Assembly (NCBI GenBank): GCA_008632985.1
Contig: QPGO01000107.1
Coordinates: forward strand, 248,001-312,000
Direction: 5' to 3'
Length of the DNA: 64,000 nucleotides
DNA from: Psammoneis japonica
Lineage: Eukaryota
The position numbers and the translations under genes are program-made. Below are positions 9,658 through 64,000 of this stretch, piece by piece (within the stretch, counting starts at the first letter, position 1; each line of letters begins with the position of its first letter). The notes beneath the pieces were generated by a model. It searched no databases, was not told the origin of the DNA, and worked only from the letters and a program-made list of their open reading frames with translations.

Positions 9658-11132
9658 CAACGATCCCGAATGAGTAACTGTTGACGATCCGGAAACAGTC
9701 TCCGTAGGCAATTTATCGACAGGGATTGACATGTCGGCGGGTTGTATGTGTGGCTAGAAAACCTCTGCCGTGCCAGCGGTGACAGCGGCCATGGTGTGTT
9801 TTGTTGTGTGCCGAGTTCGGTGTCAAAAACAAGCAATAGAAGTAAAAATTCAGAAAATGATGGAAAACCTGCGTAAACGAAGTAAAGTGCAAAAATCATT
9901 GAAAAAACAATAAAAGAATGCGGTTCTTGTACTCTACAAACGACAAACGGTTAAGGGGGACCGCCGACCCATTTTTTCCGCGTTTATCCTAAAATTAGCA
10001 ATGTGTTTGAATACGTTTATTTATAATTATTAATTTTAAATACAAGAATTGTTCGATCGCCCACGAAAACGAGAACATCAGGCACCGCGATCGAAGCACG
10101 ACGATGACGGCAATTACTCTATCTCTCAAAATTGGCCCAGTGGCACGAGGGGACGAAAGCATATAAATCAATCTGAACTATATGGCGATAATAAAACCAA
10201 TGAGTATCCCTCGTGAGGTGATACTTTGCAACTCACCGCTCGTCGCGAACATCATCATTGTCGCTCGTGCTTTTGTCGTGTTATTTTCTGTCGCGACCCG
10301 TCAAAAACGCGTAAAAACCCGGAAAAGACGTGCGAAAAAAATAAGCCGACGGCCCGCCTTAAGCTCGCATCGTTCGTGCATGTTGTGTGCATGCATTCAG
10401 CACTTGCATCTTTCAAAATCTCGAGCAGCTGCTGTGGCATGTAGAGCGTAAGGCCAGTCACTCTCTACTCTAGCAACGTGTTTACTCCAACTCTCTGCTC
10501 TATGTACATCAGAGGCCGCAACACAGTGTTGTTCACTTTCCTTTGGAAAATTTGGAACATTCAAATTTAACAAATGTGTGCCAAAATCAGTGACAGTTCA
10601 TTTTTTTTTTTGACAGTCAATTTACATTTGTTGTTGCCGTTTTATGTTGGCAATTGTTGCCGTTTTTTTTTGCTTTTAAGTCACCAAAGAATTTCAACAA
10701 GCCCTTCATTGTTGAACAATGCTTTTTGTTTTGATCAATTTTTCACATGTTTGTGAAATCGTCAACTTTGACAGTGCTTTTCAATGGCTTCACCACAGCC
10801 TTGCGTCACCACAGACAATGGCATTTCTCCCTCGCCCCAGTCGGCCACGCAATCACCCAGAGGAACACCATCTCATTGTCTCCACCTGCACGCTCCAGTT
10901 GTCCAGTCAACAGGCCCCTGCCTTCATTTTGGCACCTTTTCTATGTGCGTAGTTCTCCACCCATTTCACAACAGTGCACCCTCTCCCCAAAATGCTTTTG
11001 ACGAGAGGGTGCACTGTTGTGAATCCTGCACATTCCACGTGAATCGGCAACTGACTGTTGGCCATGGCATCTGACGACTTCACCCCATCTGACGACGAGG
11101 TCGACCCTGACCCTTCTTTCCAAATTACCGAG

Positions 11133-11490
11133 TGCACTATGCTCGAAGAACGAGTGTAAACGAAAGTAGAACGAAGTTCAAAAAGTGAAAATTGTGAGAA
11201 TTATTTCTGCGCAATCATTTTGGGTTTCTCCGAACGGGTTCTCAACAGCCTAAACCTTTTGCACTGCTCCTACAGACAAAAGGCCTTTCGGAGAATATGA
11301 TCGTGACAACAGATTGTCCGGATACGATTGACATTGACACATAAGATGTCAACATCATCGTACGATCGCATTTGCGATTCTCGACATCCGATCACTTCTG
11401 TGTGATCGATCTGTACTTCGTACGAACCCACGATTGACGTACGATTGAAATATAATTTTATATTTAATATATACATATACATATATAACA
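11133..11490 (-). repeat. Gypsy-1 3' LTR (inner end deleted)
   Basis: Aligns to 17052-~17410, retains TA dinucleotides, and abuts integrase C-terminal sequence with no PPT. Confidence 0.9.
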
Positions 11491-11491
11491 T

Positions 11492-14400
11492 GCCCTACTC
11501 TGTACGTGTAAGGAGTACGTCGAGCATTCTCTCGAGCGTTATTTTTATTTATGATTTCTTGTTTTCGCTGCTGGATTAATTTCCAATCTGCGACATGTTG
11601 GACGTTAAGAGGGCGGTCCAGAGATCGCCTGGTACACTTTTTACGTAAAAACTACCAGAGAGCCAATCACGTACATTCCTACACAGACGCAGTACAAAAC
11701 AGAAAGCATGGCACTCCATCACGCGACCTCACGACGACACCACCTGACGACAACGCATCAAAATGGCGTCGTCCGCATCTTTCTGCAGCTCCTCTTTCAC
11801 TTACCCGATTGCTCCAAAAGGGCCAGGGGAAGCTAACAAGCTTTCTCTTATAATAGAGCAATGTAAACAAAAGTTGTTTTTTATTCCAAAATCTCAGAAC
11901 ACAGTGCAACCGATTGTCAAGGCGAACTCGCACGTTGGCGGCAACAACACCAGTTGATGTTCACTCTAGAACAACAATGGAGACGTGACACCCCAATAAA
12001 ATAAAGTCTATACCCCCATGATAAATTTTAAAGCTAGCTCTTCTTGTTGGCATACAATCTTTAGCTGCTTTTTAGACTTGACAAAATGATCATCTGTCCC
12101 GGCTGTCACCCTCTGAGTTTGTTGCATTGGCTGACAAATTGGGCAAGTGAGCCACACATTTCTAGCTTGTGAACTACCTTGCAGCCAAAAGAAGCAATCT
12201 AAACCTTCAGAACAGCCATGATGCACTGGTCTGCCGAATCAAACTCCGCATCACCAAGTGGAGGCGGGGAGAACCATTGTCAAAAATGCACTGTGACGGA
12301 TCTGAGCTCTTGAGAGCTTGTCCAGCTTTTGACACCATGGCCCCAAGTCACCATGTTTATTGTGAAGTCAGCCTGATGCTGTGTCTGTGACTTTGCCTCG
12401 TTTTGGAATTGCCACGGCCATCGCATTGCAGAACTGACATTCTTGACGAGGAAAAGTGTTTCTGGGACACCTTGCGACGACGGAGACCCTGCAGAACAAA
12501 AGAACAATGTAGAAAGAGACAACACATGTAAGTCAAACGGGTGTTAATGTACAAAGCCTCAACGAAACACACAGCATGAATGGTGATGCATGAGGTCGGT
12601 CGTGATGCAACAGAAGCGATGCTGTCAACGCGAACCTTCAGTGAGAATTTTCGCCATCAGCCACCCATGTGAACCTGTGTGCTCTCGAGCTCATCACATG
12701 CCTTGTGCTGTGACGTAAGATGTTCCATTGAGAGTACACTGCAAAGCACCTCAGAAACAACCGCATTTTTGAAATCGGCGAAACGCCATTGTCCGTGTTA
12801 TTTTGCGTGTTGTTTTGCGTCGCGAGCCAGAAAACACTCCCAAAAACTGTTCTGCAGGGCAAAATGCACTGAATCTACACAGATTTGGGTTGTGCCAGGC
12901 CATGTAGAAAATGAACGGGCCGAGAACTGTGGCACGCCCACTCAAACATCATGTCTTCATTGAAGACCAGTTGTCCTGGTGTGGCTTGCGCAGCAGTGTG
13001 ATGCGCAGAACGCACCGCAAATGCCGCTGCTGATGGTGTTCCAGCGAAAGCATCCTCAGTGTCCAGAGGTGCATGTTGCAAATCAAATGTGCGGAGCATG
13101 TTCCCCAGCACTTGATGCATGCGTTCAACAATTGCGTTTGCTTGTGGATTTCGTGCAGTCACAGGCTTGACTTTAATGCCACAATCATCTTGCACCATTT
13201 CTCTAAATTGGTGTCCGATGAACTCACTTCCATGGTCATGTGCAATTGACGATGGCCAAGGACATCCACTTGACCATGTTCATTCTAGCAGTCCAGCTGC
13301 AGTCATGGATTCCTTGTTTGGGATTTCCACAACTTCAAACCATCCGGTTGCTGGATCGATCATTGTCAAACATTTCAGGACCAGGGGTTCTTTCTTTCCC
13401 TTGCGACGCATTTTGTATGGCCCAACAAGGTCCACACACAGTCGTTCCCATGGTGCGGATTCTGCGCACTCAGGAGGTAAATGTCCATGTTTCTTGTGTT
13501 TCTTTTTGAATTTTTGGCACGTCTCACATCTCAACACGTATTTTCGTATGTCTTCACGCAAGGTGGACCACCACAGGTGTTGTGAGATTGTTTCTTCTGT
13601 TTGATTTATGCCAGGGTGAAGAAGGTGCGCATGATGCCAATCTGTCACTGCCTTTTGCAACGTCCTTGGGATGACAATTTTGTCCTTGTGACACATGAGC
13701 AACCGGTCTCACTCGCCTCCACGAAAAGTCTTCGTGTGAAACGTTTTGTTTGACAATTGGGAGAGAATGTCTTTGTCCCGTTTTTGTCCACAATCAAGAA
13801 CTTTGTAATTTAACGGAAAGACATTGTCACAGGATTTTGGCAGGACCTTTTCAGCTGGCTCTTCTGTGCTGAGGGTTTCCACAGGTTCTATTTTTTTCAC
13901 AGCAATTCGGCTGATCGCATCTGCGACAACATTCGCCTTGCCCTCAAGGTGTGTTGTGTTGGGACTGCATTCTTCCATCATCAGACGCCAACGCATGACT
14001 CTGTCCGTTGTGAAATTTTCATGTGTGAGATTCTTGTGATCCGCACACATGTTCATCTGTTGGCCAAACAGCACATTTCGGAACTCTTTTAACGTCTCCA
14101 CTGTGGACAATGGCTCTTTTTCCGTTGTGGCACAATGCGTCTGTGCTCCATTCAGCTTGCGGCTGTAGAAGGCAATTGGTCGGTTTTTCTGTGTAACAAC
14201 CGCCCCCAATTGAGAATCACTCGCATCAGCACACATCTCAAAGGGCACATTGAAATTCGGGTGTGATGACAGCACATCTTTGGAGACAATGCGCTTCACA
14301 TTTTCGAAGGCTTTTTGTTCTGTTTCGGTCCATTGCCACTTAACTTGCGTAGAAGTGAGCTTGGCTAAAGGAGCTAAAACATGAGATCGTCGAGGCCACA

Positions 14401-15870
14401 TGTCTCAACAGTGGTTGATCACACCGACAAAGCGTCGCAATTCCTTGCGAGTTTTGGGAGTTGCGATCGCGTGAATCGCTTCCACCTTTTTTGGAATCGG
14501 ACTGATGCCCTTGCGGGTGATGTGAAAGCCCAGACAGTCTGCTTCGGGTTTAGCAAAAAAGGACTTCTCGGCATTGACCTTCAATCCGGCTTGTTCCAGG
14601 CGTAAAAACACCGTTTCAAGCTTCTTGAGATGGTCTTGAAAATCACCTTTTGTAAGACACAATGTGTCGTCAACATGAGTTCTGACGAACTCCAGACCTG
14701 CCATGAGCTCATTCATGTGCTCTTGGAAAACATCTGGAGCTCCACAGATTCCCATGGGGAGTCTACAGTGCTCACATTTGCCCCAAGGCATGACGATCAT
14801 GCACAAGCGACGTGCATGTGGCGTCAATTCGACATGATGGCATCCCATGTTTAAATCTGGGGATGTTGCATGCATGAAACCTTCAAGTTTCTGTGGCATG
14901 TCCTGAACATTGGGCAGAGGAAACGGAGCACGCATCAACCTCTCACTCAACTCTCGAAAGTCGGACAGAAATCGGACTCGACCATTTTTCTTTGGTTGAA
15001 TGAAGGTTGGAGCTGCCCATTCAGAACAATTTGTTTTTCTTAAGACCTTTAACTTGCATGGTCTTTCAACCTCTTTGCGAGCAGTTGCCTCCAAGGCTTG
15101 TGGTGCGGGAAATGGTTTGGCATGATGCGGACTCACGCCCGATTTCAACTTTAAATCCACCGGTTTCCCGGTCCATTTGCCCAGAGAACCATCGAAAAGG
15201 TTTTCAAATCTTTTTAAGAGGAAGTTCAGCTGCTTCTGTTCTTCAGGAGTTAGATGAGCAGCTGCTGCAGTCACATTGTTGAGGTTTGCAGCATGACAGT
15301 CTGAGTCAAGGATCCGATTGACCCTGTCAATGAGACCAATCACTGCATGAGATTCCTCAATGTGATCGGCAATCAACTTAAAAACATCGGCATCGAAGAG
15401 TGCATCGACATTCTTCATGGGAGCAGTTGCATCTTCCCATTTAATCTCTTCATTCGAGAAGTCCAACATTGTCCCAAGACTTGACATTAAGTCGCGTCCC
15501 ATGATCATGTCATGATGACTCAAAGAAGAAGGGGGGCTGTCAACATGCACCGTTGTTTCGATCATCTCATGTTTGTCAAATTCGGGTGAGGAGAATTGGA
15601 TTTTACATTGACCACCAGTCGTAAAGAGCCCTCCTTTGGTTTCCCAGAGTTTGGTGGCGGATTCTTTGGTTCTGAGTTTCCGTGTGAATTTGCGCAAAAT
15701 TGTGGTTGACGATGTTCCGCTGTCGAGGAGAACGCGCAGAGGCTCATTTTTCGCTTTGCCCAATGAAGTGTTCATGCAGGCGACGACCACTGGACTGGCA
15801 TGGATTGCTTTGGCCCTTTTTCTGGGCTTCCTAACATCCAGCAGAGCGCAAGACTCCTCTTGCGGTGCAA
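11492..15870 (-). pseudogene. pol: Gypsy-1 pol (protease, RT, RNase H, integrase)
   Basis: LLDSGTS, WAAPTF..KKNG..RF..DFR, HVDD (from YVDD), ADASD..LGAV..AFYSRKL, HLLHPG..CETCQ, VDLVGP, NPQANAIVERMH. In-frame stops present. Confidence 0.92.
11609..12943. mobile_element. ~1.3 kb non-autonomous insertion inside the Gypsy-1 integrase
   Basis: Removing it rejoins LVFNEDMMF|NVQHVADWKLIQQRKQ. Ends GAGGGCGGTCC / reverse complement GAGTGGGCGTGCC; AA is duplicated. Confidence 0.7.
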
Positions 15871-15871
15871 G

Positions 15872-17030
15872 TCATTCCTCAGAATCACTGCGCGTCATTT
15901 TTTCAAACTGATGATTCTCCTCATCAAGGGTGTCAGAATCACAATCTTTGCTCTTGCGCTTTTTGTCATTGTTCGAGGAACTCGCTTTGAGCATTTTTTG
16001 AACTGCTTGGATCGCCACAGCATTCAACTCTTCTTTGCGAGCAGCGTCATCGTTGTTGCGACGAGACCACGTGCGATTGCCATTTGAACAGTGCCATTTT
16101 GGGTCGGGTTCACAGTTCCCACGGCGTTCTTTTGCAAGTCTTTTGATCAACCAGCACTTGTCTGTGTTGTGAGTGGATTTCTTGCATGAAATGCACCACT
16201 TCTTGGACTGAGATTTTTTGGTGCCATGTTGGTGACCATTTTTGGAACCATGTTTGGAACCACTCTTGGCTTTTGATGCAGTGCCGCCACTGCCATCAGC
16301 CTTGGCATGAATGCCATCGAACATGTCCTCTGCGACCTCTGGGCGCTCCAAAAACTCAACCAACTCGTCACAAAATTTCGAAACCCTGGACGGTCGACTG
16401 ACGCTGCCACTTTCGAGGTGCAAGATTGAAGAGGATGTCCTTGAGCTCGTCCTCCTCGATCTTCTGTTCCTTCCCAAAGGGAGGATAGAACTTGAGATCT
16501 TTGTTGACTTCCTGGACCCAAGCAGCAATTTTGCGCACTTTCATGGACTCCGGCTTCTTGAGATCACGACGCAAATAACGTTTCTGCACCGAAAGTGCGT
16601 TCTTGGGAAACACATGCCTCGTGAGATGCTGCAGGCATTTCTCGAAGCTTCCTTCCACAGATTCGTCTTCAAGGTTCGCTGCCACATTCTCGAAAGCACG
16701 TAGAGCGTCTCCTTGGAGTGACACACGCATGAGGCGGAACTTGTCGGATTGCTTCCTGACATTCTGGCCCACTGGAAGTTGATCGTAGCTCTTGAGAAAT
16801 TCGATGAACTTGGGGACACCTTGCTTCTTGCAGTGCTCGACATTGATGGTGCAGGTGCGGCTGTCCTTCTTCTTGGGATGAAAACGTTGCTCCATCTTGA
16901 GGCACTGGCTCGGTTTGAGGCTCTTTGGCTCGGAACTCGATTCCAGCAGTTGAGGAACGATTTTCTCCTGCCTCAACAAAGTTTTGGCATTGGTTGCTTG
17001 AGGTGAAAGCTTCATCTTGAACTTGTTGCC
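15872..17030 (-). pseudogene. gag: Gypsy-1 gag
   Basis: ORFs 16368-17078 and 15872-16528 linked by a frameshift: VFPKNALSVQKRYLRR, zinc knuckle CISCKKSTHNTDKC. Confidence 0.85.
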
Positions 17031-17051
17031 TTCTGTGGTGTGCATGCACAA

Positions 17052-17430
17052 TGCACCATGCTCAAAGAACAAGTGCAAACGAAAGTAGAACGAAGTTCAA
17101 AAAGTGAAAATTGTGAGAATTATTTCTGCGCAATCATTTTGGGTTTCTCAGAACGGGTTCTCAATGGCCTAAACCTTTTGCACTGCTCCTGCAGACAAAA
17201 GGCCTTTTGGAGAATGTGATCGTGACAACAGATTGTCCAGATGCGATTGACATTGACACACAAGATGTCAACATCATCGCACGATTGCATTTGCGATTCT
17301 CGACATCCGATCACTTCTGTGTGATCGATCTGTGCTTCGTGCGAACCCACGATTGACGTACGATTGAAATGTGCTTTTGTTTAATGTGCAGATGTGCATG
17401 TGCGACACGTGCATGACAACGCACATTGCA
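17052..17430 (-). repeat. Gypsy-1 5' LTR (379 bp)
   Basis: TGCA...TGCA termini; homologous to 11133-11490 and to the Gypsy-2 LTRs. Confidence 0.92.
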
Positions 17431-20400
17431 CGAGGACTTAAATTTTGATGAAATAGAATGTTTCACCAACGGTTTCGGATTCGAATTGTTCCAACCCAAG
17501 CTCAAAAGCACAATTGCAACGCGTGCCTTGAAAAAGAAGTTTTTGGAGTCGACAAATTGGACCCCCTCTCCAGAATTCCTCGCTCTTCCCTTCCTTTGTC
17601 ACAAGCCGAAGTTGCGCCGTGTTCCTCATGTTGCCGAAGTTATCCGCACCAACAACATTGTAAGGAAAACCCTTGGCCATCCCGACATTTGGTCCCACAT
17701 CATGACTCGTGGTTGGTCCATTGAGAAATCCCGCCGTGCAAATGGCGAACATGTCCTGCGACATAAAAATCTCGAGGAGGCTTTGCATTTCTCCAAAATG
17801 TCCGGAGAGACAGAAAAAGAACAGCACAACCGTGTGCTTCTTCACCGCAACATCCAGGCGATGGTAGAATTTGTTCACACGATCATTGCCGGAGACGACC
17901 CAAACGATCCTTTATCCGGTGAGCCTTGTTTCTGATTTTTACGGTGCAAAAGTCTCCAAAGTTTGACCAACGATCGAGCCCAAGACCTCCACAGTGCCTG
18001 TTTTGTCACAGACATCGTCATGCGTTGCGTTCAGTGCAAGCCCAAGGACATGGACTGTTGGTTCTTGAAGATTTTCCGTCACGTCAAAACCCAAAAGGAA
18101 TGGCGCCTCTTTGTCAATGGCTTTCTGGTTGCATGCGATGCCAACGATCCTGGTGCCCAGGCAGAAAAGATCAAGGGTTTCCTTGACGACTCAACCGGTG
18201 ACACAAAGAACACGGTGATGGTGCAAGGCGATTCCCTTGCATGCCGTGAGGCTCATGAAGAAAAAATCAATTCCATGTTGAATCACGAATTTGGGAAGCA
18301 TTGTCCCAAGGAGCAAATTGGTGTCTGACCTGGGTGCAGCAAGCAGCTCACAATGCTCCGTTGCAGAATGCATGATCAGAGGGCCGACTGCTTGGAAGAC
18401 GATGACAAACGAATCTACAACTCCAAAACCAAACGCAAAATTAGGAGGACCCACAAGGATGGCACCTGTTTGTACGATGGTAAGAAACCCCCCCCACCTC
18501 CCACCTTCTACCTTTCTGCCTGCATCTGTCATCTCAATGTCTCTTCTCACACCCCATGATTGTTCACGACCCACCAGAGCCTTCCTTGACCGTTCCCAAC
18601 AAGAAGGCCAAGCCTGCATCTCGCAACAAACAAGCCCCTCCATCGCTTTCTGGCAATGTTCCGTCGTCCAGGGAGGCGCACCGGACTCTCACCGCCGACC
18701 TTCCGTCACTCTCAGAAATTGTGGAAAACCTAAAACCCACTTCCACCTCCAAAGGTCCTTTGTCCAAACCTCATTCTTCTCCTCCTTCTGTTTCAGCTAA
18801 TCCTCCCGCGGTTACGTCTCCTCCCAGTGACCCCAACGACATGTCGTGGCTGGACCTGTCCACACTCCGCGATCGCTTTGACCCATCCAAGTGTCGACCA
18901 GTCACCAACGAGGAAGTTTCTTCTCATTTGTCACACCTGCACATCATTGACAAAGCCACCGACACTGATCGGGTGCTTCATCATTCCGCCGCCGACTTTT
19001 GCCTGGCGGACAACTTGCGGGAAAACTGGCACACGTTCTCAAACAACACGCCATCATGTGATTCCGCCACCGCATCTCATGTTCGAACCGAGCACCCTCC
19101 CAACCTCGATCACTTCTCCAAGGAACTCTCCGTCGCCCGTCAGGCTAACTCTCTGTACAAAGGGCACTTTGGGTGCCTTCGTGCATGCATTCCTGCCCTT
19201 CTTCCATTTATTTTGTTGAAGGGAGTGTCCGATTTGACACGTGACGGACCGGTTGCAGTTCAAAACGGCGAAGCATGCAGGACAAAGTTCGGTTGTGCTG
19301 GGAGAGCGCATCACCCCAAGACGCCTGGTTCTGCCAAACTGGCCAAACCAAAGGCTGCTTGTGGACTTGATGTCTTTGAGCCCAATGACAACTTTGATGC
19401 CAACGAGACCTCCAAAATCAAGGTGATGGCAGCCGGCATCCTTGACTCGATTCAGCTTTGCGAAAATGAGGTAGAGCTGAAAAAACTGAGCAATCCACCA
19501 CCATTTAACTGGTCACTTTGGTGCAAGGAATGCTCGCAAAAGTTGGGCAACGAAATGGGCTGTCTGTTCTTCAAACGTGAGGACGTCACTGTGCAGGGAT
19601 TGTGCATTTCCTGGGGTCAAGACTGTGGTGGTCACTGTGACAATAAAAACTGCATCTGGCATCAACACAGGAAGACAGCTGCAGGTTGCTTCTTCATTGT
19701 GGATGCCTTTGGCGACATCTGGTCCTTCAAGGTTGTTGCCAACAGCAGAAGGACCATTGGTCAATGCTACGATGACCAGTGCGACATGAAGCCTGTGCTC
19801 ACTTGCACGCACCACAATTGAGCTCAGCTTGATTTTGCACTTAAAGACTTGGACTTGCAGCACAATGGTCCCACCCACCCCAATGTGTTGCTTTCCAGCA
19901 TTACATTCAAGCATCTTTCCCTCGATGACAACAGGCCGTGGGACAATGTTCTTGTTGGTGGAGGTGGCGACTCTTCACATGTCGAGGTGTGCATGGATCG
20001 ACTCAAGTTCCCGACTTTCCCAGTCAGGGACTTCCACTTGTCTGCCCCAGTCACAGTGATCTGCCGTTTCAAGAACATTGTGTGCCGATCGGGTCCCGAC
20101 CCAAAACGAGTCATTCGTTTGGCGATCCATGCTGGTTGTCCCACCGGACATCACCGATTTTACCACGTGGGGGACAAGTGTCTTCCTGGCCTTTGTTTCG
20201 AAGGTGCTGACCCATTTGTCCACTTTGCCAATTGCTTGCAGAACACATTTGGGGTGCCACACGGTGACCCACAGGTGGGTGGGATCAGCCCTGCCAATTT
20301 GACGTGCGAGAAATTTTGCGATGCATTTCTAGACCCTTGTTGCGTCAGAACCGCGAATGACCTAATTGACGCAATGGTGGAAGAAATCCATGCTGCACTT

Positions 20401-20997
20401 CTCTGGATAAACAACAACGTCGACACCAACGAGTTCTGTCCCAACTTAATGGAACAATGCTGCAAGGCAGCGTGTGATGCTTGGGCAGACCGGGGAGCAG
20501 ATTTCAGTGAGATTCGTCTCGTGTTGGTGCTGCAATGTCTGGTGCTGGCAGGTGTCGCAGTGAAAGACCATCCCAGACTCAACGACATTGTCCATCCTGT
20601 CTTCAATTCGGGAGCTGCTGCACAACTGGGGCACATCCAACCGGAAGAAAGGCCGCTCATGCACCAAAGGACATCATCCGAAACAGGAACCGAAGAGCAC
20701 GGTTGGAACGGAACCGAGCACAAACTTTGTGAGAATTCTGACAATCGCTGCACCCACATTTTTGATCATGTTTTCCGAGGACCCTGTTCAGGACAAGACC
20801 TGTTTGCCTTCTCTCCCTCTGGGCAGCATCTCCGTAAGCCATGTGGGTCAACCGAGCATGAAATTTTGGAGTGTGTTGACGACGACCCCAACCTTTGCCA
20901 ATCACAAGACAATGCTGAATCACGCACATTTGTGTGTGAATCAGCTGTGCAATCAGACGGTGCCAGTGCTTTCTCTGTTGTTGATGGACTGCCCGCG

Positions 20998-21177
20998 GAC
21001 AATGAACTTAGCTCATTGTCATCGGAGGAGTCTAGACTTGCCGCAAACAATGAACTTAGCTCATTGTCTTTGGAGGATTGTCGACTTGACGTGGAGAAAG
21101 AACTAAGTTCATTGGATTCGGAGGAGTCTCGACTCGCCGCAGACAATGAACTCAGCTCATTGTCTTTGGAGGAGTCT
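20998..21177 (+). repeat. 48-bp coding tandem repeat, ~4 units (NELSSLSxEESRLAAD)
   Basis: DNELSSLSSEESRLAA/NNELSSLSLEDCRLDV/EKELSSLDSEESRLAA/DNELSSLSLEES in ORF 19849-21537. Confidence 0.9.
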
Positions 21178-32780: not shown

Positions 32781-32799
32781 TTGAGCTGGGTTGATTTCT

Positions 32800-53900: not shown

Positions 53901-54156
53901 TGGACAAGTGCAGAGCCAAGGAATTCAAAGGACGCGCCTCAAGCGAGACCACCGTTAGCCGCCGTGCTCTTTGTGACCTCGAAAAGGGGATTGCCAAGGC
54001 GGAAGGAAAATCGTGAAAACCAAACTTACACTTGCGATGCAAAGGCGCGAGTATTTCCAAAAACAGCTTTCAATGAGCCAGATGCAGATTGAAGAGACGA
54101 ACTCAGACGTTTTGCAATGGGCGCAGGTATAAACAATACACAGCGAAAGCCGCATT

Positions 54157-55396
54157 TTACCAATCGGAACAACATTCACACACTTCTCTCGCAACAGCCG
54201 CAAAGTATCCTCCCTTGCACTTGCCATCCATTCGGGGACATGCCAAACAATGCGCCGCTGCAAACTCTCTCAGCGACAACAAAGTCTTTTGTTCAATATC
54301 TTTTATTCGCAAGTCGTCCAACTCTCTTGTGACGTTGGCGGTTACGGAAATGTTACCATCGATGTATTTTCTCACTCCGACTGGTTGATAATCCCATATA
54401 TATTCCTTGGCTTGAGATTTGGTCGTGTTGTCCCAAAGGACGCTGTTCAAACTCTGTGTGTAAGATCATGTTTCCGAGCAGAACACAACTCAAAACACAC
54501 ACCCAATCGACGACATTTACTCACCCATCCATCATGTCGGTTGCTTCTTCGTCCATGGCATTCATCACCGCTTGAGACGGAGGCAAAAACGGGACTATAT
54601 CCAAATAGTATTCGTACGAAGTTTGATTTACCTGTTTGTAAAAGGCCTTGGCAAATTTTGAATCTCCCGCCTTGGCCGAAGCAAACGTGACTACCTCCGT
54701 GACGTTGGGCAATTCCTCATCTTGATTTACCAGCATGGCAGCAATACTCGCCATGGCTCCACCCTTGCTGTGGCCCGTCATGAAAATCTTTATGGTATTA
54801 TTATTTGATTGCATGGCTTCCAAAATGTTGGACTTCATGGGTTTCCAAATGGATGTGACGGCCCGATAGAATCCCGAATGGAGTCTACCGGGCAAATTGG
54901 GAACGCGTTGCAATCGCAGCGCGGCATTTTGAAGCCAATCGAGTGGCGATACCGTCACTGTCCCACGAAAGGCCAATACTAGACCATCGCATGTTTCTCC
55001 CAGTAACACGGAATTGACACTCTTGGTGATACGTATCGTGGTAGTTTCAGGTAAGTAACCGGCGGCTTCAAAGTACGGAGGAACTGGATTGTAGGCACAT
55101 TGCGAGGCGCACAAGAGTCGGCCATCCAACGTCTTGGCGACAATTGAGTCGTCGTCGTCCGCGATTTCCTCCTGCACCATGAGGTGTGTCTCTACAATGC
55201 CGGTAGCGCCGGTGTCATTGACTACATCATCTACCCAAGTTTCGTTAGTGTTTAAAGACGACAACAATCGAGTTGGAAGAATGAATGGCGCTCTTCTAGT
55301 CGGAAGAATGCATGTCCTCCTCGATTTTTGTACACCGGAACATGTAAAAGCATCTGCTACAGCGACAACGGTTATAAAGTGGAATGCTCGAGTCAT
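54157..55396 (-). CDS. Class-3 lipase (alpha/beta hydrolase), 2 exons (intron 54443-54524)
   Basis: Signal peptide with ADAF, VLAFRGT, LHSGF, TGHSKGGA, VTFASAKAGD, DIVPFLPP. A GTGAGT...CAG intron joins MMDG|VLWDN. Confidence 0.9.
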
Positions 55397-56899
55397 TTTA
55401 CTTGTTTGACAAACGAAGCTTCAAGGAAGGCGTTGAGTGTTGATTGCTGCATGCCGGTTCCGGCACCACCGATGTGCAATGTGCAGCCAGAGTTCATTGC
55501 TCATCGGCCGGACCATACCTCCCAAGCCGGGAGTGGGACCATACCTACCCGTACCCGGGGAACGGATAAGCTGGCAAAAAAATGAGGATGACGTCACTCA
55601 CAGTGCTCGCAGAGCGAGCTACAGTCTGCTCGCGTTAACATATACTGGGGGTACATACGGTTTTTTAGTATATGTTATAGAGAGGGTATATTATGTTATT
55701 CCAGTCTCGTACAAAAGTACGTATATTTACCACGTACGTAGAATAAGTACCAAGATTTACGTAGCTTGAAATCTTGCGCTTCTCCCTCACGACTCACGAC
55801 GCTTTGGGGCCATGTTCGCGCGGCCACCACTGTATTTTTTGAAAAAACTCATGACCTGCCTTCATCAATTCTTTGGTCCTGCTAGGTACAAGGAAGCCCA
55901 GGACCACTTCTTAGAGTTAAATAATGGTCAACAAGGGTGTCTACAGTTGTTGTAAGTGTAGTCTTAATGGTTTCATCGCCTCAAACTAGTCGTATCACGG
56001 ATTCGCAAAATGGTCTGTCGGTCTGTCAGGCTGTCTGTTTACAGGAAAGTCTGACCTTCGTCCGAGGGGTCAGGCCGGATTTTTTAGTGTGCGTTATAGA
56101 GAGAGTATATGTTAAAAAGTGTGTGTTAGAGCGAGCAGACTGTACTCTCTACTCTAGAGCTAGAGAGGGCCCCACTCTCTAGAGTAGAGAGTAGAGTAGA
56201 GAGAGAATGGTGGCAGCTGCTCTCTGCTCCCTAGAGAGAGAGACTGCAGCTGCTGCAGTCTCTAGCATGACAGTGCGCGAACATGTTGTGTTGTCTGCCT
56301 GCGGGTTGGGGCATCGTCAACAAAATGTTTCAACTGTCATTTTCAGCGACAAGTTGTTGGTTGTTGAACCCATCTTCACTGGGCTCATTCTCTCCCAGAG
56401 TCGAGTGGGTGAAAGGTTGCAAGCAGGACCAAGTGGCTCTGGTGCCCCTGTGCTTTTTTGCCAAGCACTCCTGTCAACACCCATGCTGGTCATTTGGCTG
56501 GCCAGCTCCTCCATCAGCACCGTTGCACTGTGTCCATTGTGTGACTCCCCTCCCTTGTTGCCAAGGATGTCTCTCTTTGTTGGACAGTGCAGTTGTTGAT
56601 GGGTTGAAGATTGCTGTGTCCATTGCATGTGGTGGCAACAGCTTGTCCTCTGCCAGACATGAGCACATTTGGGAGCACAGCAATTGGTCAGAGTTTGTTG
56701 TGGGCTTGATGGACTGGGGTGTGTGCGCTCTGCAAGCAAGAGATGTGTGTCTGTGGTCACACTGGCTTGTGACTTGTTGTCAACAGACAAGACTGTTTGT
56801 TGGCATGGCCCAGCCAGCCTGTGCTTCTGTGTTTCTTGTCAGCACCCAGCCAATGGAGAATGAACAGGGCTGTGCAGCCAAATGCTTGCATTGCAAACC

Positions 56900-59800
56900 A
56901 TGGCAAAGGCCATTTCTCCAGGGGCTTTGAAAATGTTGTGACAAGTTGGGACAATGCCTCCTCCTCTTCATGGCTTTTTTCCTGCATTTTGGAAGCATGG
57001 TTTCATGGGCTGATGAGTTGTCTGTGGAGCTGCCTGCAAGGAGTCTGAGAGAGACAGAGCCCGCATTCAAAGAACTGCAGAGAGTGTGTGCAGAGAACAT
57101 CCAAGCTGTGGAGCATGCATCAGACTGCTCATTTGCATGAATCTAGCATCCTTTGGTGGTGCCAAGAAGGAAACAAGCCTGCCAAAAAGTGGGAACTTTC
57201 TCATCCGGAAATCTTGGTGGGGCCCATGGGATGACACAACCACAGGCCAAAGTTCACAGACATGATGGCATTGAGTCTGAGAAATCTGCTGAGCAACAAT
57301 GAAGCAGAGCTTGTGGCTGTGTGCAACAAGCTTCAAGAACATCAGGTCAAGGATCACAAGCAGAAGAACATCAATTGCACTCCACTGCCAAGGTCAGCAA
57401 TTGGGTGGCCATGGTGTGGCCCTGTCTGAAAGAAAGTGTCAATGAGGCCAGAAGTGCCAAAATTCTGGCTGACCCTCATCCCAGTCCCTTCTGCCATGCT
57501 GGCTGTCAGTGCACTGGAGAAGTGTGGTGGGTCAGCATTTGCTGGCTTTTGCGGAAAAAAGCGCAGTGGTGCCCATGGACTGGACTTTTTTTGTGTCCTT
57601 GTTGTCAGCTTTGAATGCAGTCTGATTGTCAGGCCTGGCCCTCACCAGGGAGAGATGCAGCTGCTTGTGGTGGTGAAACATGCACAAGCTGGCCCACTTT
57701 GTTCTTGCTCAACAATGGCATCAAGGCATCAATGGCAAAACAGGCTTTTTTTGGCAGGGTGTGCTGTGACACCCCTGACATTGCCTGGAACCCAATGGCC
57801 AATGGTGCACTGAAGAACACAGCCCTTCTTTGTGAATTTGACCCTGCCATCCCCAGAGAAATCAGTGGTCATTTGTGCAGCACTTTGCTCCAACATGCAG
57901 TGATGGGCACACTGTTTTCTACCTGCACTTGTTGTTGAGGGCCATGGCAATGTCCAGTGGCACCCACCATTTGATGTGAAATGGTTTCATTTCATCAGCA
58001 ACATGCCACATTGTGGCACAGTGCTTGCCACATTGATGGTCTTGTTGACCATGCACCAATCATGTGGGTTCCTTGACTTGAGTCCTGGGTCTCACCTGCA
58101 CAGGAATGAGGGCAGATTCATCCAGAGGAGAAGAGCTCCTTGGAGGATTCCATGTGTGGTCACTTTTTCAGCTCCATGAACAACACAGGTTTTCCCTTCT
58201 CTCCATTGCCACACACTTGTGGCACTTCCTTGCATCAACCCAGTGGAGCAACTCAGCCAGTCTTGTGTGTGTCAACCAGCCCATGATGTCACTGTGCATG
58301 AATGCACCTTGCAAGTTGGTGCTCATTGCTTGGCATTGCTCCTGTGGATCAATTGCAGAAGACAGAAATGAGGTGTGGGATTGCTTCTGTCAGTGCAGAG
58401 ATGTTTCCTCTTTGCTTTTGTGTGGTCGTTGTTTCTTCCTGTCAGTGCATCTCCTGCCCTTGATTGCGCTGTCGACGCGTTCCAGCCGTAGGTGGGACTC
58501 CGTGTGACATTGGGCCCGTAGAATTCTACGTGCGAGCTCCGTAGTACGAGAATTTAATTAATGGATACATTTATCTTCAACATCAAATAAACCGCCAAGT
58601 TTGTGGTACAATAGTGCCTCTCACCACTCGACTTTTTTGCAAATACGCCTGCCCTACGCGATTCTTAAGACATTATAGAATCGCGCTGTAACAAAAAATG
58701 TCAAAAGTTGTTGGACGGATCGCTCAATAAGTGTACTGTAAAATGACACAAAATATCGAAAAAATCACGTAGAAATCTACGTGCGCGACATACGACGTGA
58801 TTCAAAAAACTGTCGATGTCACAGTTCAGTAGTACGAGGTCCCACCTCTAGTAGACCTGGAACACGTCTGTCTTGCCTCTGCTTGAGACACATGAAATGC
58901 CTTTGTGTGTTTTTCTTTTGCTCCCTTGTTGTGTCTTTGGCAAACACCAGCTGGACAACATTGCAGAAGGATGGCTGCTTCATTTGCTTGACCACAGCAT
59001 CAGCTCTGGCTCTGCCAAGCCAACATCCACTTGGCAAGGAAAAGTGCCCCCCACCGGGCCTTCAAAGTGTTGGATGATTGGGCGCAGCAGCCAGCCCAGC
59101 TCATGATTGCATCTGTGGCTGCAGCCCTTCTCCTTGCAAGCTTGAAGGTTGCACACCTGGCGCTCCTCTTTCCACATCAGCACCTGTGGTCTGCCAGTGC
59201 CACCATCATTGTCTTCCTCTTTGTCACAGTCACAACCAGAGTTGGGGCCACACTCCACTTGGAGGGCAGGTGCTTGGTCATCCCAGTTTGCCCCCATGAC
59301 TTCAATTTTCATTGCTCATGTCTTTGGTCTGTCCCAACTGAGCTTGTCTGGGAATGAGTTCCAGCACCTGGTCTGAGTCAGTGCTGCCCACATCCGCTCC
59401 TGCATTTTCTGCTGGTTTGGTCTGTCACTCCCCACTCTGGCTTCTTGAGCAGCTTCTTCCACTCCAGTCATTGCACTGGGGCACAGAGTGTTTTCTGTTG
59501 AGGGGTCTTCCACTCTTGCTGTTGGCACCTCTCTCCAGCAAGTCTCCCACTCATGTGGTTGCCTTGGCTGTGGGCGACACATCTGCTCCACCAGCCAGTG
59601 CATCAGATCTCCATTGGAAGCCATTGTTGGTGGGTGCACTCCTGTGACCCAAGTGTGTCTGGACAAGGGTTGGGTCTGAAATCAGCATCATCTGAGGGAT
59701 CAGATGAGCAGCCACCATTGTCAAGGAGGAGTTGTCAGCAGAGTTGTCATTGTTGGGGTCACAGCTTGTGCTCTCATTGTGCACAGAGTTGGGGTGGTGG

Positions 59801-60850
59801 GGAAGTCAATGTCCACATCTGTCAGCAAAGGCAAGGGTTCAGCACATGTCTTGGCTGGCCCTGAGTTTGTCAACATGGTGAACAACATCAGACAGCATGG
59901 GCATGGCTGTCCAGTGGTTTTTGCAAATGACATCATGCTTGTTGCCAGTGGTGAGAAACATGAAATGGTGCCCCCCTTGTCCATTTCCTGCAAGTCTGAG
60001 GCAGACAGCACTGGTGGTTGTTGGGTGCACAGTGTTGTTGCACTCTTCATGGACCTGAGCACAGCTGCCAAACTCAAGGGTTGTGCATGTTTTTGACTGT
60101 CAATGTGCTGACCAGTGGTGACACAGCTCCCTGGTTGTGCTGCCAGGGTTCAGGAGCAGTGCATTGAGCCAGGAAGTGGAGCTGCAGACCAAATGAATGA
60201 GGATCATTTGCAAGGTTTGCTTGAAGGGAAGGGAGCTGAAGCCACTGTGCCTCCTGTCCTTGACTGTTCAGATGCGTTGCTCAACATCTGCCATGTGCAC
60301 TCATCCTGTGAGTGTGCAGGTTGAATGCTGCATTTGGCATGAGGTCCTCAAGGGCCTGGAATTCTGGGTCAGCATGAATGGTTGCTGTCAGGGTTTGTCA
60401 GTGCCAACACCTGAGGACCATGTGACCTTCTTGAGCATGGCAGCTGCAGCACTGCCCCTGCTGTGTGGTGGCACATGCACTGAGCTTGCTGCTCTTGTTG
60501 CCACCACCACATCCTTTTGGGCTTGTTGTGCTGCTCAATGTCCTGCACTTTGTCTGGCTCCTCTGTTGCACTGGTTGACAGCGACCCTTTCAGTTGTGAA
60601 GGCTGGCTCAGTTTTGTCACTGTGAGTGCCACCATTGTGGTGCTCAGGTGGCACACAGTTGAGGGTGCAGCTGCAGCAGGTTCCTCTGCAGACTTTGGGC
60701 CATTGTCCAAACCCCTTGAGCACTTGCTTCAATGTCTGCCACAAGGTTCCCACATCAATTGTGGTTGCTGTTGAGGAGGGGAAAACACCCCCAACAGATT
60801 GACTTTGTCCCCTCACAGATCAGTCACAAAATGGGAATCCCGGACTCAGC
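56900..60850 (-). mobile_element. Ty1/Copia pol relic (integrase-RT-RNase H)
   Basis: HMADVEQRI*TVKDR..LPF..WLNA; AVCLRLAGNGQGGHHFM..NHWTAMPM; KQMKQ..LKQRQDSAIKGRRCTD; NPHDWCMVNKTIN; TFSKPL. LTRs not identified. Confidence 0.8.
58474..58868. mobile_element. 395-bp MITE-like insertion in the Copia RT
   Basis: TSD TGTC (58470-73 / 58869-72); inverted ends GACGYGTTCCAG...AGGTGGGAC. Removal restores KQRQD|SAIKGR. Confidence 0.85.
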
Positions 60851-61019
60851 ATGGGTTCCATGTTGTTTGCAGGACTCCCCCCCCCCCCCCCAGTGGCCAG
60901 AGCTGGCATTGGGCAAAAGATTTAAAAGTTCACTTCAGCTGCAGCATGCTGCATCAATCCTCTTGCTGTCTCTCCCACCAGCATTTAATTTGCTGTGTTG
61001 TGTTGTTTGCTTCATCATT

Positions 61020-62035
61020 GACTGTGTCAAGTGTGGGTGGTGATGAGGTTTCTGAGCCAGTGCTGAAGTGCAAGAGAATCAAAAATGTCTTTGAGCTTGA
61101 CCCTTGGATCAACCCTGATGCAGGCAAGAGTGTCTTCACTGACAATGAGTTGGACAGTGCACTCTCCAAAATTGCACACAATGAGTGGTGTGGTGCATTC
61201 CTGCACAAGGAGACAAACTGTTTTGGAGATTCAAGAGGTGGGTGCCAAGGAAACTGAAGATTGGACAACAACAAGTGGCACGTTGTCCATTTCAATGTCA
61301 AAGCAAGTGCAACTGCCATGTGGAGATTGTTCAAAACCATCCAAACAACAACCAAATTTCCAAAGGATTGGTGCCTCATGCTGACTGCAATGTGTCTTTC
61401 TACAAGAGCCAACTGGCAAAACAAGTCTTGCAAGTCTTTGGCTTGCCATGGCATGCTGAGTTGCATCTGAGTCAATTGCTTCAAAAGGGCCTTGGACAGA
61501 ATTTGAATCTTGACAAGGGTGCACAGAGGAAAGCCCAGAGGATGCTTTCAAAACAAGCCAAGCAAGTGTTGAGGTTGTGCCCCACCAATGGAGAGAGTGG
61601 AGTGGGGTGGGGATGCATTGTGGATGCCCTTGAGAGATGCAAGCATGACTCCATGAGTCCTGACGCATTCAACAAGCACACAACATGGGTGCTTTTGTGG
61701 TGACAAGCATTTTTGTGACAGCAACGCAGAGCAACTGTGTTGTGCTTTTTCTGCAGAGAATCTGCTGCTGAAAAGATGTTGTCAACTTGCGCCAGGGCAG
61801 AATTTCTTTGCTGTCAACACATTGCACCCACAAAAAGGCTGGTTTAATGCCAATCAAGGTTGTCAGTTTTAAACGAGATGGCCACATTGTTGCATGTGGT
61901 GTTGCATCAAATGAAGATGAGGAAACATGCAAAATCATCTTTCAGAGCATCAAGAAGGCTGTGAAAGATGTTGTTGGTAGATGTGTTGCTTGTGGGGATC
62001 AGCATGCTTGGGATGCAGTGGAGAGAGCAAAGTGA
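61020..62035 (+). pseudogene. MULE transposase relic
   Basis: VFSAENLL..AGLMPIKVVSFKRDGHIVACGVASNEDEETCKIIFQSIK resembles the MULE core. Confidence 0.55.
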
Positions 62036-63915
62036 CAGTGGAATTTAAATGCTTGTCAACACAATGCAACACAGTGCAATGCAGTGAAATGTGGTGCAAC
62101 ATGCTCTGGCCACCACCAGCTGGTTTACACTCAATTTTGCAATGAAATCATGAGTTGATCATTTGATCTTGGAAATTGATTGTAAAGAAAATGTTGTGCA
62201 ATGCCATGCAATGCAGCACAACACATGCAATGCAACACAGAAACAGCTCATTGACTTGCATTCAATTTTGCACTCCAATCACAAATCTTTCATTTGGGCT
62301 TCATGAGTCAATCATCAGGGCTCCTCCATGCTTTGCAGTCTTGGGACAACTGAAAAACTCAATGTCATTTCTCAGTGCTTTGCCATGGCACATGAATGGC
62401 AGTGCTGTGCATGATGCTGGCAATCTTGCATGTGCCAGACATGAACCTGTGTTGATGCCTCATTCCAAAAGCTCTTTTGTTGGCATTGCTTGCAGCCCTT
62501 TGTGTGTGAGCATTGTGTGAAGCTCTTTTGTTGTGACTCAAGTCATGTCATCTGATGGTTGGATCAACCTCACAATGTGGAATGTCTTGATTCAATCCAC
62601 AGCCATTTCACAACTCATGTCACACTCAGTGATGGCTTTTTCAGGGTTCAGGAGCAGCGTCTTTGTCTTGTGTTGATGCAGCCATCAATTTGTTGCAAGG
62701 CCTTTTTTGCATGCATCAATGTCATCTGCATTGATGCCAAGGGCAACAAGGTCATTCTCATGAAATGCTGCCCCCAACAATGTGTGGCCCTTGCAGCAGC
62801 AGCCATTCCAAGATGCCCACGGCCCTGTGGATTTGCTTCAAGGGTCACACATTGTTGGGGGCAGCACTGCATGAATGATCTTGTTGTTGACCTTGGCGTT
62901 GATGCAGACCAACCCCAATGCAGGCAAGAGTGTCTTCACTGACAATGAGTTGGGCAATGCACTCTCCAAAATTGCACACAATGAGTGGTGGTGTGTTCCT
63001 GCACAAGGAAACAAAGTGTTTTGGAAGTTCAAGAGGGGTGGGATCCAAGGAAGCTGAAGGGTGGACAACAACAAGTGGCGTGTTGTCCATTTCAGTGTCA
63101 AAGCAAGAGCAACTGCCACATGGAGATTGTTCAAAACCATCCAAACAAGAATCAAATTTTCAAAGGATTGATGCCTCATGCTGACCACAATGTGTCTTCT
63201 TTCTACAATGGCCAACTGGCAAAACAAGTCTTGCAAGTCTTTGGCTTGCCATGGCATGCTCAGTTGCATCTGAGTCAATTGTTTCAGAAGGGCCTTGGAC
63301 AGAATCTGAATCTTGACAAAGGTGCACAGAGAAAAGCCCAGAGGATGCTTTCAAAACAAGCCAAGCAAGTGTTGAGGTTGCACCTCACCAACAGAGAGAG
63401 TGGAGTGGGGTGGGGATGCATTGTGGACAACAGGAAAACTCAATGTCATTTCTCAGTGCTTTGCCATGTGGCACATGAATGGCAGTGCCGTGCATGATGC
63501 TGGCAATCTTGCATGTGCAAGACAAGAGACCTGTGTTGATGCCTCATTTTCCAACAGCTCTTCTGTTGGCATTGCTTGCAGCCCATTGTGTGCAAGCATT
63601 GTGTGAAGCTCTTTTGTTGTGACTCAAGTCATGTCATCTGATGAAGGGATCAGCCTCACAATGTGGAATGTTTTGATCAAATCCACAGCCATTTCACAAC
63701 TCATGTTGAACCCAGTGATGGCATTTTTAGGGTTCTGGAGCAGTGTCTTGTGTTGGTGCAGCCGTCAATTTGTTGCAAGACATTTTTTGCACACATCAAG
63801 AATGTCACCTGCATCAATGCCAAGGTCAACAAGATCATTCATGCAGTGCCACCCCCAACAATGTGCGACCCTTGCAGTGCATCCACAGGGCCACGGGCAT
63901 CTTGGAATGGCTGCT
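61111..63915. repeat. Local duplication/foldback complex
   Basis: 61111-61625 matches 62911-63427; 62343-62795 matches 63425-63880; 62800-62907 is an inverted copy of 63810-63913. Confidence 0.85.
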
Positions 63916-64000
63916 GAAAAGAAAAAAGCGGCCCTCTTGTCAAATTGATGTGGAGTGAAATTTCATTGGTGGTTTTGCCAGCTGAAGCAGTTGAAAAAAA

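Follow-up and report, generated by a model that had tools for sequence, protein, structure and literature searches.

A likely footprint of TpA-specific hypermutation in integrated mobile elements of a probable diatom

What has removed the dinucleotide TA from the transposon DNA of contig QPGO01000107.1, when the host genes beside it retain TA at normal frequency? The stretch analysed here comprises 64 kb of this contig (positions 248,001 to 312,000; referred to as the window, its first letter being position 1), in which host genes lie next to Gypsy retrotransposons, a Crypton-like element and unclassified repeats. We consider it likely that a TpA-specific A:T-to-G:C hypermutation acts on the integrated mobile-element DNA of this organism, a probable diatom. 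The changes carry a defined signature and polarity, arose after insertion, affect both strands, follow a context rule and are confined to mobile DNA. All composition work was carried out on this one window and describes an accumulated footprint.

Over the whole window, the observed/expected ratios are 0.23 for TA, 0.66 for CG, 1.50 for TG and 1.51 for CA. In bins of 2 kb, the host genes between 1 and 10 kb have TA ratios of 0.43-0.63 and CG ratios of 0.98-1.14, whereas from 12 kb on the TA ratio drops to 0.03-0.36 and TG and CA rise to 1.3-2.1. The lone exception past 12 kb is the bin 54001-56000 (TA 0.72), which contains a Lipase_3 gene. Frequencies of dinucleotides and tetranucleotides were also compared within the window between a set of transposable element (TE) sequence of 46,802 nt and a set of gene sequence of 15,902 nt. 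The TE/gene ratio is 0.24 for TA, 0.47 for CG and 1.41 for both TG and CA, and the remaining 12 dinucleotides lie at 0.94-1.08 (AA, AG and TT 1.05; GA and AT 0.94). The depletion of TA is genuine, and the original prediction that TA is scarce in transposon DNA yet normal in host genes is borne out both by these ratios and by the bin values, in which the drop of TA past 12 kb goes together with the rise of TG and CA.

The 16 NCGN contexts are depleted rather evenly in the TE set (0.37-0.55). Within each flanking context, the combined loss of NTAN and NCGN was found to be close to the combined gain of NTGN and NCAN, namely, per 10^4, 40.8 vs 42.6 for ATAC, 36.1 vs 38.7 for CTAC and 24.6 vs 24.0 for TTAA. 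A poorer fit was obtained for ATAG (41.6 lost vs 24.9 gained) and GTAC (40.9 vs 66.4). It follows from the balance within flanking contexts that TA and CG have been converted in place into TG and CA. The stop codons TAA and TAG fall in TE DNA from 6-10 to 2-4 per kb, with TGA rising, and this depletion accounts for the many long overlapping open reading frames (ORFs) of the window.

The layout of the loss was resolved by a three-state segmentation on pyrimidine-purine (YR) steps, the states being normal, TA lost with CG mostly kept, and both lost. The normal state was assigned to 2-10375, 11093-12073, 32866-34828, 39206-40196, 53545-56315 and 58467-58865; loss of TA with CG mostly kept to 10377-11090, 12079-29645, 34837-39204, 40198-43453 and 43788-44950; and loss of both to 29648-32864, 45413-53542, 56318-58465 and 58869-63992. 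Two further patches, 43470-43783 and 44952-45408, were scored as normal solely through their high CG, their TA counts being 1 and 5. TA and CG together make up 39-48% of the YR steps in the gene block and in both of the embedded gene islands, and 2-24% in the TE domains. The expected restriction to mobile DNA, with embedded host genes spared, is therefore supported by segmentation and bin composition alike. As for the extent of the depletion, the TE-wide loss stood, while the start had to be moved from 10507 to 10377 and the supposed single block proved to be a mosaic with normal islands. The principal segments are given below.

2..10375: host gene block with normal YR steps (TA 367, CG 659, TG 745, CA 701)
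10377..11090: older repeat fragment depleted in TA and CG, the target of the retrotransposon Gypsy A; other copies of it in sequencing run X1 have an empty site
12079..29645: domain of TA loss with most CG retained (TA 154, CG 737, TG 1691, CA 1595), containing the interior of Gypsy A and long ORFs
29648..32864: domain with both lost (TA 9, CG 18, TG 380, CA 380)
32866..34828: normal island with an ORF at 33144-34436 on the minus strand (Tyr 4.4%; no Pfam family)
45413..53542: deeply mutated domain with TA and CG lost, broken by an 89-bp patch at 49048-49136
53545..56315: normal island with the Lipase_3 gene at 54521-55420 on the minus strand
56318..63992: deeply mutated domain (TA/CG counts 2/9 in 56318-58465 and 11/22 in 58869-63992)

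When the changes arose can be read from two Gypsy retrotransposons, A and B, each a single insertion bounded by a 4-bp target-site duplication (TSD).

11133..17430, minus strand: Gypsy A, single insertion, TSD CGAG at 11129-11132 and 17431-17434
13280-13708, 13709-14404 and 14405-15871, minus strand: Integrase_H2C2, RNase H and reverse transcriptase (RT) domains of Gypsy A (Pfam)
11093..12073: spared patch of Gypsy A (TA 61, CG 56), covering the long terminal repeat (LTR) at 11133 and ~620 bp of the interior
17052..17430, minus strand: mutated LTR of Gypsy A, with 9/13 TA and 5/22 CG lost relative to its 11133 twin over 319 aligned bases
35478..40206, minus strand: Gypsy B, single insertion, TSD GAGC at 35474-35477 and 40207-40210
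35478-35844 and 39840-40206: left (mutated) and right (spared) LTRs of Gypsy B
39206..40196: spared patch of Gypsy B (TA 37, CG 53), covering the LTR at 39840 and ~630 bp of the interior

A contig of run X1 links 11128 to 17431 with 4 shared letters; this is the unoccupied site of further copies of the older repeat. Given this empty site and the intact TSDs, the LTRs of each pair were identical at insertion. Pair A now has 17 mismatches: TA is opposed to TG/CA in nine cases (9:0, with TA always in the 11133 copy) and CG to TG/CA in five (5:0), the rest being one TG-versus-CA pair (two mismatches) and one transversion. An earlier count of 9 directional TA changes and 5 of CG in this alignment was exact. 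Pair B has 21 mismatches, with TA against TG/CA at 12:0, CG against TG/CA at 2:1, two TG-versus-CA pairs and two other A/G differences. Over both pairs, 21 of the 38 mismatches are of the TA type, 8 of the CG type and 6 in TG/CA pairs, and 2 other A/G differences and 1 transversion make up the remainder. For the three TG-versus-CA sites, each strand of an ancestral TA must have been hit once. One-sided differences between the LTRs of TSD-bounded elements thus confirm that the DNA was acted upon in place, after insertion.

The mutated LTRs have lost 21/34 TA, 7/45 CG and ~3/530 other sites. On a log scale, the loss of TA is ~5-9x faster than that of CpG and two orders of magnitude above background. 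In the alignment of Gypsy A with Gypsy B, CA/TG accounts for 52 of 136 double-transition dinucleotide pairs, the runner-up class having 25; as judged from this alignment, the excess marks independent hits on shared ancestral TA. A separate observation on Gypsy A is that several X1 contigs skip ~1.35-1.4 kb, from 11565-11608 to 12940-12971, so that either other copies of the family are without this segment or the present copy carries an extra one.

For the direction of change, the LTRs of the other Gypsy element served as outgroup. TA was the ancestral state at 8 of the 9 polarisable single TA differences, and in pair A CG was ancestral at 5/5 CG differences. Evidence on the same point comes from the RT of Gypsy A.

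14405..15871, minus strand: RT ORF of Gypsy A, with 0 Tyr in 488 aa and the motif YxDD changed to HVDD

Aligned with the RT of Ty3, YLDD has become HVDD, GYH has become GCH and KYEY has become KCEH. At the 12 RT columns with at least 60% Tyr among 120 homologues, the window has His at seven, Cys at four, Phe at one and Tyr at none; the control residues are kept (Pro 18/18, Phe 14/14, Trp 5/5). The medians of the homologues are 3.7% Tyr, 1.2% Cys and 2.5% His, compared to 0%, 2.9% and 4.5% in the window RT.

The second protein belongs to the Crypton-like element, whose gene is present in two parts.

34892..35477, plus strand: Crypton-like N-terminal part, residues 72-195 of which match residues 4-125 of the relative P0242
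40192..42387, plus strand: Crypton-like C-terminal part, 731 aa, TA-depleted

The gene is cut exactly at the insertion site of Gypsy B (TSD GAGC), and from this split a nested order follows, with the Crypton-like element as the older one; its left edge coincides with the state switch at 34828/34837. The Tyr content of the protein is 0.1%, as compared to a median of 2.8% in 54 relatives, and its six conserved Tyr columns now hold Cys (four), His (one) and Val (one). When RT and Crypton-like protein are pooled, 16/18 conserved Tyr columns are now Cys or His. As far as these alignments can tell, the direction of change is from TA to TG/CA and not the CA to TA of fungal repeat-induced point mutation (RIP). 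A polarity opposite to RIP had been expected, and it is upheld by the outgroup LTRs and by the Tyr columns of both proteins.

Relatives of the RT were also identified on four short sediment contigs (coverage ~1, at most 58% identity, TA observed/expected 0.53-0.65), for which pairwise spectra are too noisy. Two of these relatives from sediment metagenome contigs of another organism, L001 and L002, differ in YIDD vs HIDD and KPYH vs KPCH, which at a coverage of ~1 hints at the same kind of change in another organism.

The protein data bear on the view that there is no hypermutation, the TE families being intrinsically poor in TA, either because UpA is selected against or because they are of foreign origin, or else having been shaped by GC-biased gene conversion among copies. 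The host genes are themselves under-represented in TA (0.43-0.63), as this view would have it. However, catalytic and conserved Tyr residues have been replaced by His and Cys, while the spared LTRs and the homologues are normal in TA and Tyr, respectively, and gene conversion should have lowered AA, AT and TT as well, yet these stand at 1.05, 0.94 and 1.05. We give next to no weight to this view.

The loss of TA depends on the flanking bases, as is evident from the TE/gene survival of TA in each context.

ATAT 0.05; ATAC/GTAT 0.07; ATAG/CTAT 0.09; GTAC 0.13; ATAA 0.21
CTAC 0.25; GTAA 0.30; CTAG 0.42; CTAA 0.56; TTAA 1.2

An additive flank effect, in -ln units of 1.5 for A, 1.0 for G, 0.4 for C and ~0 for T, fits the mixed contexts within ~1.6-fold. 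Where the DNA is saturated, survival is 0 for ATAC and GTAC and still 0.69 for TTAA, and the two positions 5' of the T of surviving TA are themselves T in 58% and 69% of cases, compared to 21% and 30% in genes. The context rule is strong: RTAY (R, purine; Y, pyrimidine) is nearly erased and TTAA is spared. The products are asymmetric, ATAG giving ACAG (21.9) as against ATGG (3.0) and CTAC giving CTGC (24.5) as against CCAC (14.2). These values, in which baseline noise is present, suggest a preference for a pyrimidine on the 3' side of the mutated A and an avoidance of G there.

On the sense strand, TG/CA counts are 443/485 in Gypsy A, 213/188 in the Crypton-like ORF and 366/365 in the long ORFs without family. 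A transcription-strand bias had been suspected from observed/expected values, and the raw counts do not show one. Because both strands are hit and a DNA transposon, the Crypton-like element, is depleted as well, the process is placed at the level of DNA. This bears on A-to-I editing of transposon transcripts by an ADAR/ADAT-type enzyme, with fixation by reverse transcription. Such editing would be in line with the best-documented elements of the window being retrotransposons, and also with the U before the edited A, which is the usual ADAR/ADAT preference and is mentioned as such in the Discussion of Mettrop et al. (bioRxiv 10.64898/2026.01.13.699255). The twin LTRs of single insertions, however, diverged after integration, the two strands are hit about equally, and the Crypton-like DNA transposon is depleted to the same degree as the retrotransposons. 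A 3' G, moreover, is the least favoured neighbour here (gain of ATGG 3.0 vs 21.9 for ACAG), opposite to the preference of ADAR, and editing at the RNA level is extremely unlikely.

The relation between the losses of TA and CG was examined in 128 bins of 500 bp. None of the bins has TA kept and CG lost, 12 have TA lost and CG kept, and 34 have lost both; the two losses are correlated with a Spearman coefficient of 0.80. CpG decay is nested inside the domains of TA loss. Collateral error-prone repair would have T:G mismatches from deamination of 5-methylcytosine (5mC) recruit a Pol-eta-like polymerase that miscopies T in WA motifs, resembling phase II of somatic hypermutation, in which the WA motif means A>G at TA and AA. 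The confinement of TA loss to domains of CG loss, as given by this correlation and by the missing class of bins, and the hits on both strands would agree with such repair. AA, however, should then drop too, yet AA and AG are each at 1.05 in TEs relative to genes, and this lack of AA depletion disfavours repair of the Pol-eta type. In addition, TA is lost with CG fully kept in the 12 bins and in the patches 43470-43783 and 44952-45408, and the RTAY/TTAA rule differs from the WA rule, so that this explanation is regarded as distinctly improbable.

Sequencing reads were compared with the window through run X1, which has contigs of up to 315 kb and a word depth of 61. Over the 4,950 bases of 5001-9950, X1 deviates from the window by 2 letters and 1 gap. 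It contains 56% of the sampled 31-mers of 8001-18000, and 1,267 of its pieces fall on 5001-25000 at 99% identity or more. When 5001-25000, which includes a high-copy TE region, was compared with the reads, 330 of 363 variant places were transitions. Among the 40 best-supported of these 363 places (window vs other X1 copies), 17 have TG/CA in the window and CG elsewhere, and 6 show the opposite arrangement; TA is involved in 3, and the remainder consists of 9 transversions and 5 further transitions.

These data bear on a sequencing or assembly artefact, in which a modified base at TpA was read as G or polishing rewrote the repeats. The window is probably derived from a long-read assembly, X1 differs from it at the 3 places noted in the gene block, and the spared patches of ~1 kb might have arisen as chimeras during the assembly or polishing of a high-copy family. 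On the other hand, if A were modified on each strand of the palindrome, reads of one strand would give TG and those of the other CA, and the calls would be mixed and include CG, which is instead depleted. Twin LTRs, moreover, have been affected only in part and at different individual sites, and the loss depends on the flanks; the long contigs of X1 at its word depth speak for accurate reads, and X1 contains 56% of the 31-mers sampled from 8001-18000. The same signature was called from Illumina mutation-accumulation data in Bigelowiella natans, as reported in the preprint by Mettrop et al. An artefact is very unlikely.

Several points weigh against the hypermutation proposed here, at least in its simplest form. 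At column 40 of LTR pair B an ancestral TG is favoured, in a stretch that is poorly conserved. Among the 40 best-supported of the 363 copy differences, 3 involve TA, as opposed to 23 of the CG type. The reads stem from three runs of one sample, of which the comparison with X1 is not independent, and are present as contigs, with the platform not on record. The spared patches occupy ~1 kb at one end of each Gypsy, namely the 3' end of the element in Gypsy A and the 5' end in Gypsy B, and have the same age as the mutated rest. They may be due to action in tracts, to gene conversion at a later time by copies free of mutations, or to chimeras of assembly or polishing. A small insert is likewise unmutated within saturated DNA (the 399-bp patch has TA 29 and CG 30).

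58474..58868: insert of ~395 bp resembling a miniature inverted-repeat transposable element (MITE), bearing terminal inverted repeats and flanked by TGTC on either side

No second copy of this MITE-like insert was identified in the window; either it inserted very recently, or the process acts in episodes or in a copy-directed manner. Searches for tRNA and Rfam families returned nothing that accounts for the small spared patches. The spared ends of ~1 kb and the intact insert mean that a simple, continuous action over whole domains does not explain the pattern; together with the other spared patches, the insert is compatible with episodic action.

A last point of this kind concerns chemistry. 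TA is palindromic, and for this reason deamination of A and a route directed at T are indistinguishable by sequence. A TET/JBP-like dioxygenase might make 5-hydroxymethyluracil or 5-formyluracil at TpA, which mispairs with G or is misrepaired to give T>C; all results obtained here would fit this equally well, and 5-formyluracil is mutagenic towards A:T>G:C. We know of no dioxygenase with TpA specificity, however, and the natural substrates of TadA/ADAT enzymes always have U before the target A, a fixed 5' U/T that provides the deaminase route with a ready explanation of the dinucleotide. Oxidation of T is thus considered improbable.

By the preferred reading, hypermutation would act on mobile elements once they are integrated, on both strands and in tracts of kilobase scale that stop at host genes and sometimes inside an element. 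TA would be turned into TG or CA, with R-T-A-Y strongly preferred and T-rich/A-rich flanks such as TTAA spared, and Tyr codons would be destroyed and TAA/TAG stops removed. At each site the process would run several-fold faster than the methyl-deamination of CpG, which would affect the same domains nested inside. The chemistry may be the conversion of adenine to hypoxanthine, read as G, for which a TadA/ADAT2-like deaminase is a candidate, and the targets may be selected as silent, CpG-methylated chromatin. A TadA/ADAT-like DNA adenine deaminase is suggested as the candidate enzyme by analogy: the tRNA adenosine deaminases TadA and ADAT2-ADAT3 and the engineered adenine base editors carry out the A-to-I change read as A>G that is proposed here, with an obligatory 5' U/T in the natural substrates. 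To our knowledge, natural action on chromosomal double-stranded DNA (dsDNA) in kilobase tracts is established for no TadA/ADAT member.

The nature of the host is indicated by a gene in the host gene block.

5703-6923, plus strand: ARC5/DRP5B-like dynamin ORF (Dynamin_N)

This protein shares 83% identity with an unnamed protein, 73% with Chaetoceros neogracile, 68% with Triparma and 55% with proteins of brown algae. The probable host is a diatom, or else a close ochrophyte, and not a fungus, so that the fungal frame of the original prediction had to be given up.

A described counterpart exists in another alga. In mutation-accumulation lines of B. natans, Mettrop et al. (bioRxiv 10.64898/2026.01.13.699255) reported that viral DNA integrated in the genome underwent de novo hypermutation of the A:T>G:C type, at TpA only. 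According to the preprint, 231 of 302 nuclear mutations fell into two viral regions, an integrated nucleocytoplasmic large DNA virus (NCLDV) and a virophage region; A>G or T>C made up 230 of the 231, with all GC-biased ones at TpA. These mutations occurred in only some lines, and RT and DDE domains were over-represented among the TpA-poor coding sequences. A candidate of the ADAT2 type is named there, and activity of ADAT2 on DNA in amphioxus and trypanosomes is cited; the main text of the preprint makes no mention of diatoms or stramenopiles. The earlier statement that no mechanism had been described is superseded by this 2026 work. Full-text literature searches returned no report of a TpA signature in diatoms, the preprint being the sole match elsewhere.

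The two systems share almost exclusive A>G/T>C change, limitation to TpA with TpG and CpA as products, confinement to foreign or mobile DNA, depletion of TpA with enrichment of CpA and TpG, and RT and DDE genes among the TpA-poor sequences. They differ in host, which in B. natans is a chlorarachniophyte and here a probable diatom (stramenopile), and in targets, which here are Gypsy, Crypton-like and unclassified repeats with TA observed/expected down to 0.03, compared to a Rho of 0.45 for the NCLDV region of B. natans. In B. natans de novo events were observed, whereas the present window holds an accumulated footprint only. The flank rule, the nesting of CpG decay and the sparing of ~1 kb within an element were not found in the main text of the preprint, whose Table S2 and Fig. 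2B may hold flanking data. By analogy, the process in the window would be of the same kind as the de novo hypermutation in B. natans.

What the system shares with fungal RIP is a mutational defence in which mobile DNA is peppered with transitions at particular dinucleotides and genes are spared. RIP acts mainly by CpA>TpA, so that TA is enriched, whereas in the window TA, the ancestral state, is destroyed (0.24x, with CA/TG at 1.41x); RIP is a C>T process (PMC7296669). The term 'reverse RIP', used in the original prediction, holds only as a formal analogy. RIP, through homology recognition and a RID-type enzyme, would mutate every copy of a duplicated stretch; no sign that repetition itself is recognised was seen here, and each Gypsy has one LTR free of mutations, although the family is at roughly 100x single-copy depth in run X1 and the summed word depth of the LTR is ~270x single-copy depth.

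Diatom TEs were reported to be CpG-methylated via DNMT5a (Hoguin et al. 2023, PMC9998398). Deamination of 5mC at CpG accounts for the CG>TG/CA part of the change (CG 0.47x) and for its co-location with TEs; however, it cannot remove TA, the loss of which is faster per site and also occurs where CG is fully kept (12/128 bins). That 5mC decay explains the CG loss only, as first proposed, thus holds, the losses of TA and of CG each balancing the gains of TG and CA per context. In the ADAR and APOBEC systems of animals, too, nucleic acid of mobile elements or viruses undergoes deaminase-type hypermutation. The substrate of ADAR is dsRNA, with a 3' G preferred, and APOBEC carries out C>U on single-stranded DNA; unlike these, the changes in the window are A:T>G:C at TpA, on both DNA strands, post-integration and with a 3' pyrimidine favoured.

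The TE classes of the window were examined by Pfam searches on 59 long and 126 short ORFs. Of the classes originally named, Gypsy was confirmed, the Crypton-like element is a lead, and Helitron comes down to a weak PIF1 match (E 0.002); for Copia, Plavaka and MULE, no such Pfam match was obtained among these ORFs, and the 126 short ones gave no match to any family.

29762-30367, minus strand: RNase H fragment, inside the both-lost domain 29648..32864
47205-47804, minus strand: weak PIF1-like match (E 0.002), inside 45413..53542

The 731-aa Crypton-like ORF has 341 relatives in the database, and a Pfam scan of seven of its relatives found no family. One relative groups, by language-model features (score 0.97), with clusters of NDC10_II/GCR1_C, DUF3435 and Phage_integrase from Bacillariophyta and Oomycota. 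The prediction of a Crypton-type tyrosine recombinase for the ORF at 40192-42387 is taken as a lead only.

Next to the Crypton-like element, a RusA Holliday-junction resolvase ORF lies at 42764-43510 on the minus strand (PF05866, E 3.9e-9), depleted in TA with CG kept. RusA is a gene of phage or bacterial type in a eukaryotic repeat region, and the ORF may mark DNA of viral or bacterial origin. An inverted repeat of 102 bp with 95% identity has its arms at 34648-34749, in the normal patch 32866-34828, and at 45273-45374, in the patch 44952-45408, which is TA-poor (TA 5) with CG kept.

Over ~8 kb, 18484-26344 contains long TA-depleted ORFs without Pfam family (445, 571 and 352 aa on the plus strand; 262, 267, 208, 468 and 236 aa on the minus strand). 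For the ORF at 19822-21537, the database yielded one homologue and Pfam no family; an assignment of this homologue to XPG_I/Pox_G5, nucleases of giant-virus type, had an Atlas score of 0.85 with sub-threshold recognition and was rejected as too weak to use. Between 26001 and 30000, the plus strand is purine-rich with a strong skew (GC skew +0.23, AT skew +0.19). In the saturated DNA near the end of the window, blocks are repeated at 88-91% identity (61107-61624 vs 62907-63427, and 62341-62796 vs 63421-63877), and the repeats within 61107-63877 may represent a tandem or nested old element.

The window is probably a further case of the TpA hypermutation described in 2026 in one unrelated alga. 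It would place the process in a second major lineage, and here ordinary retrotransposons and DNA transposons are hit, beyond viral inserts. Mutational genome defence has been known as C-directed, with RIP in fungi and APOBEC in animals. For the annotation of such genomes the finding is a warning: mutated copies that lose Tyr codons, TAA and TAG give rise to long false ORFs and are missed by domain searches, with no Pfam match in the 126 short ORFs and none in most of the long ones. Any candidate enzyme must reproduce the rule by which RTAY is hit and TTAA spared, and a natural enzyme that acts as an adenine deaminase on chromosomal DNA would be of interest both to biochemistry and for practical use. 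It is a tentative idea, which we hold to be possible, that diatoms and chlorarachniophytes, and perhaps SAR (stramenopiles, alveolates and Rhizaria) more widely, share a natural dsDNA adenine base editor derived from TadA/ADAT2. Recruited to silenced invading DNA and reading R-T-A-Y in kilobase bursts, it would destroy the Tyr codons and catalytic sites of transposons and of integrated viruses at a pace exceeding that of CpG methylation decay. If this is true, the RTAY/TTAA rule would be the biochemical fingerprint of this shared editor.

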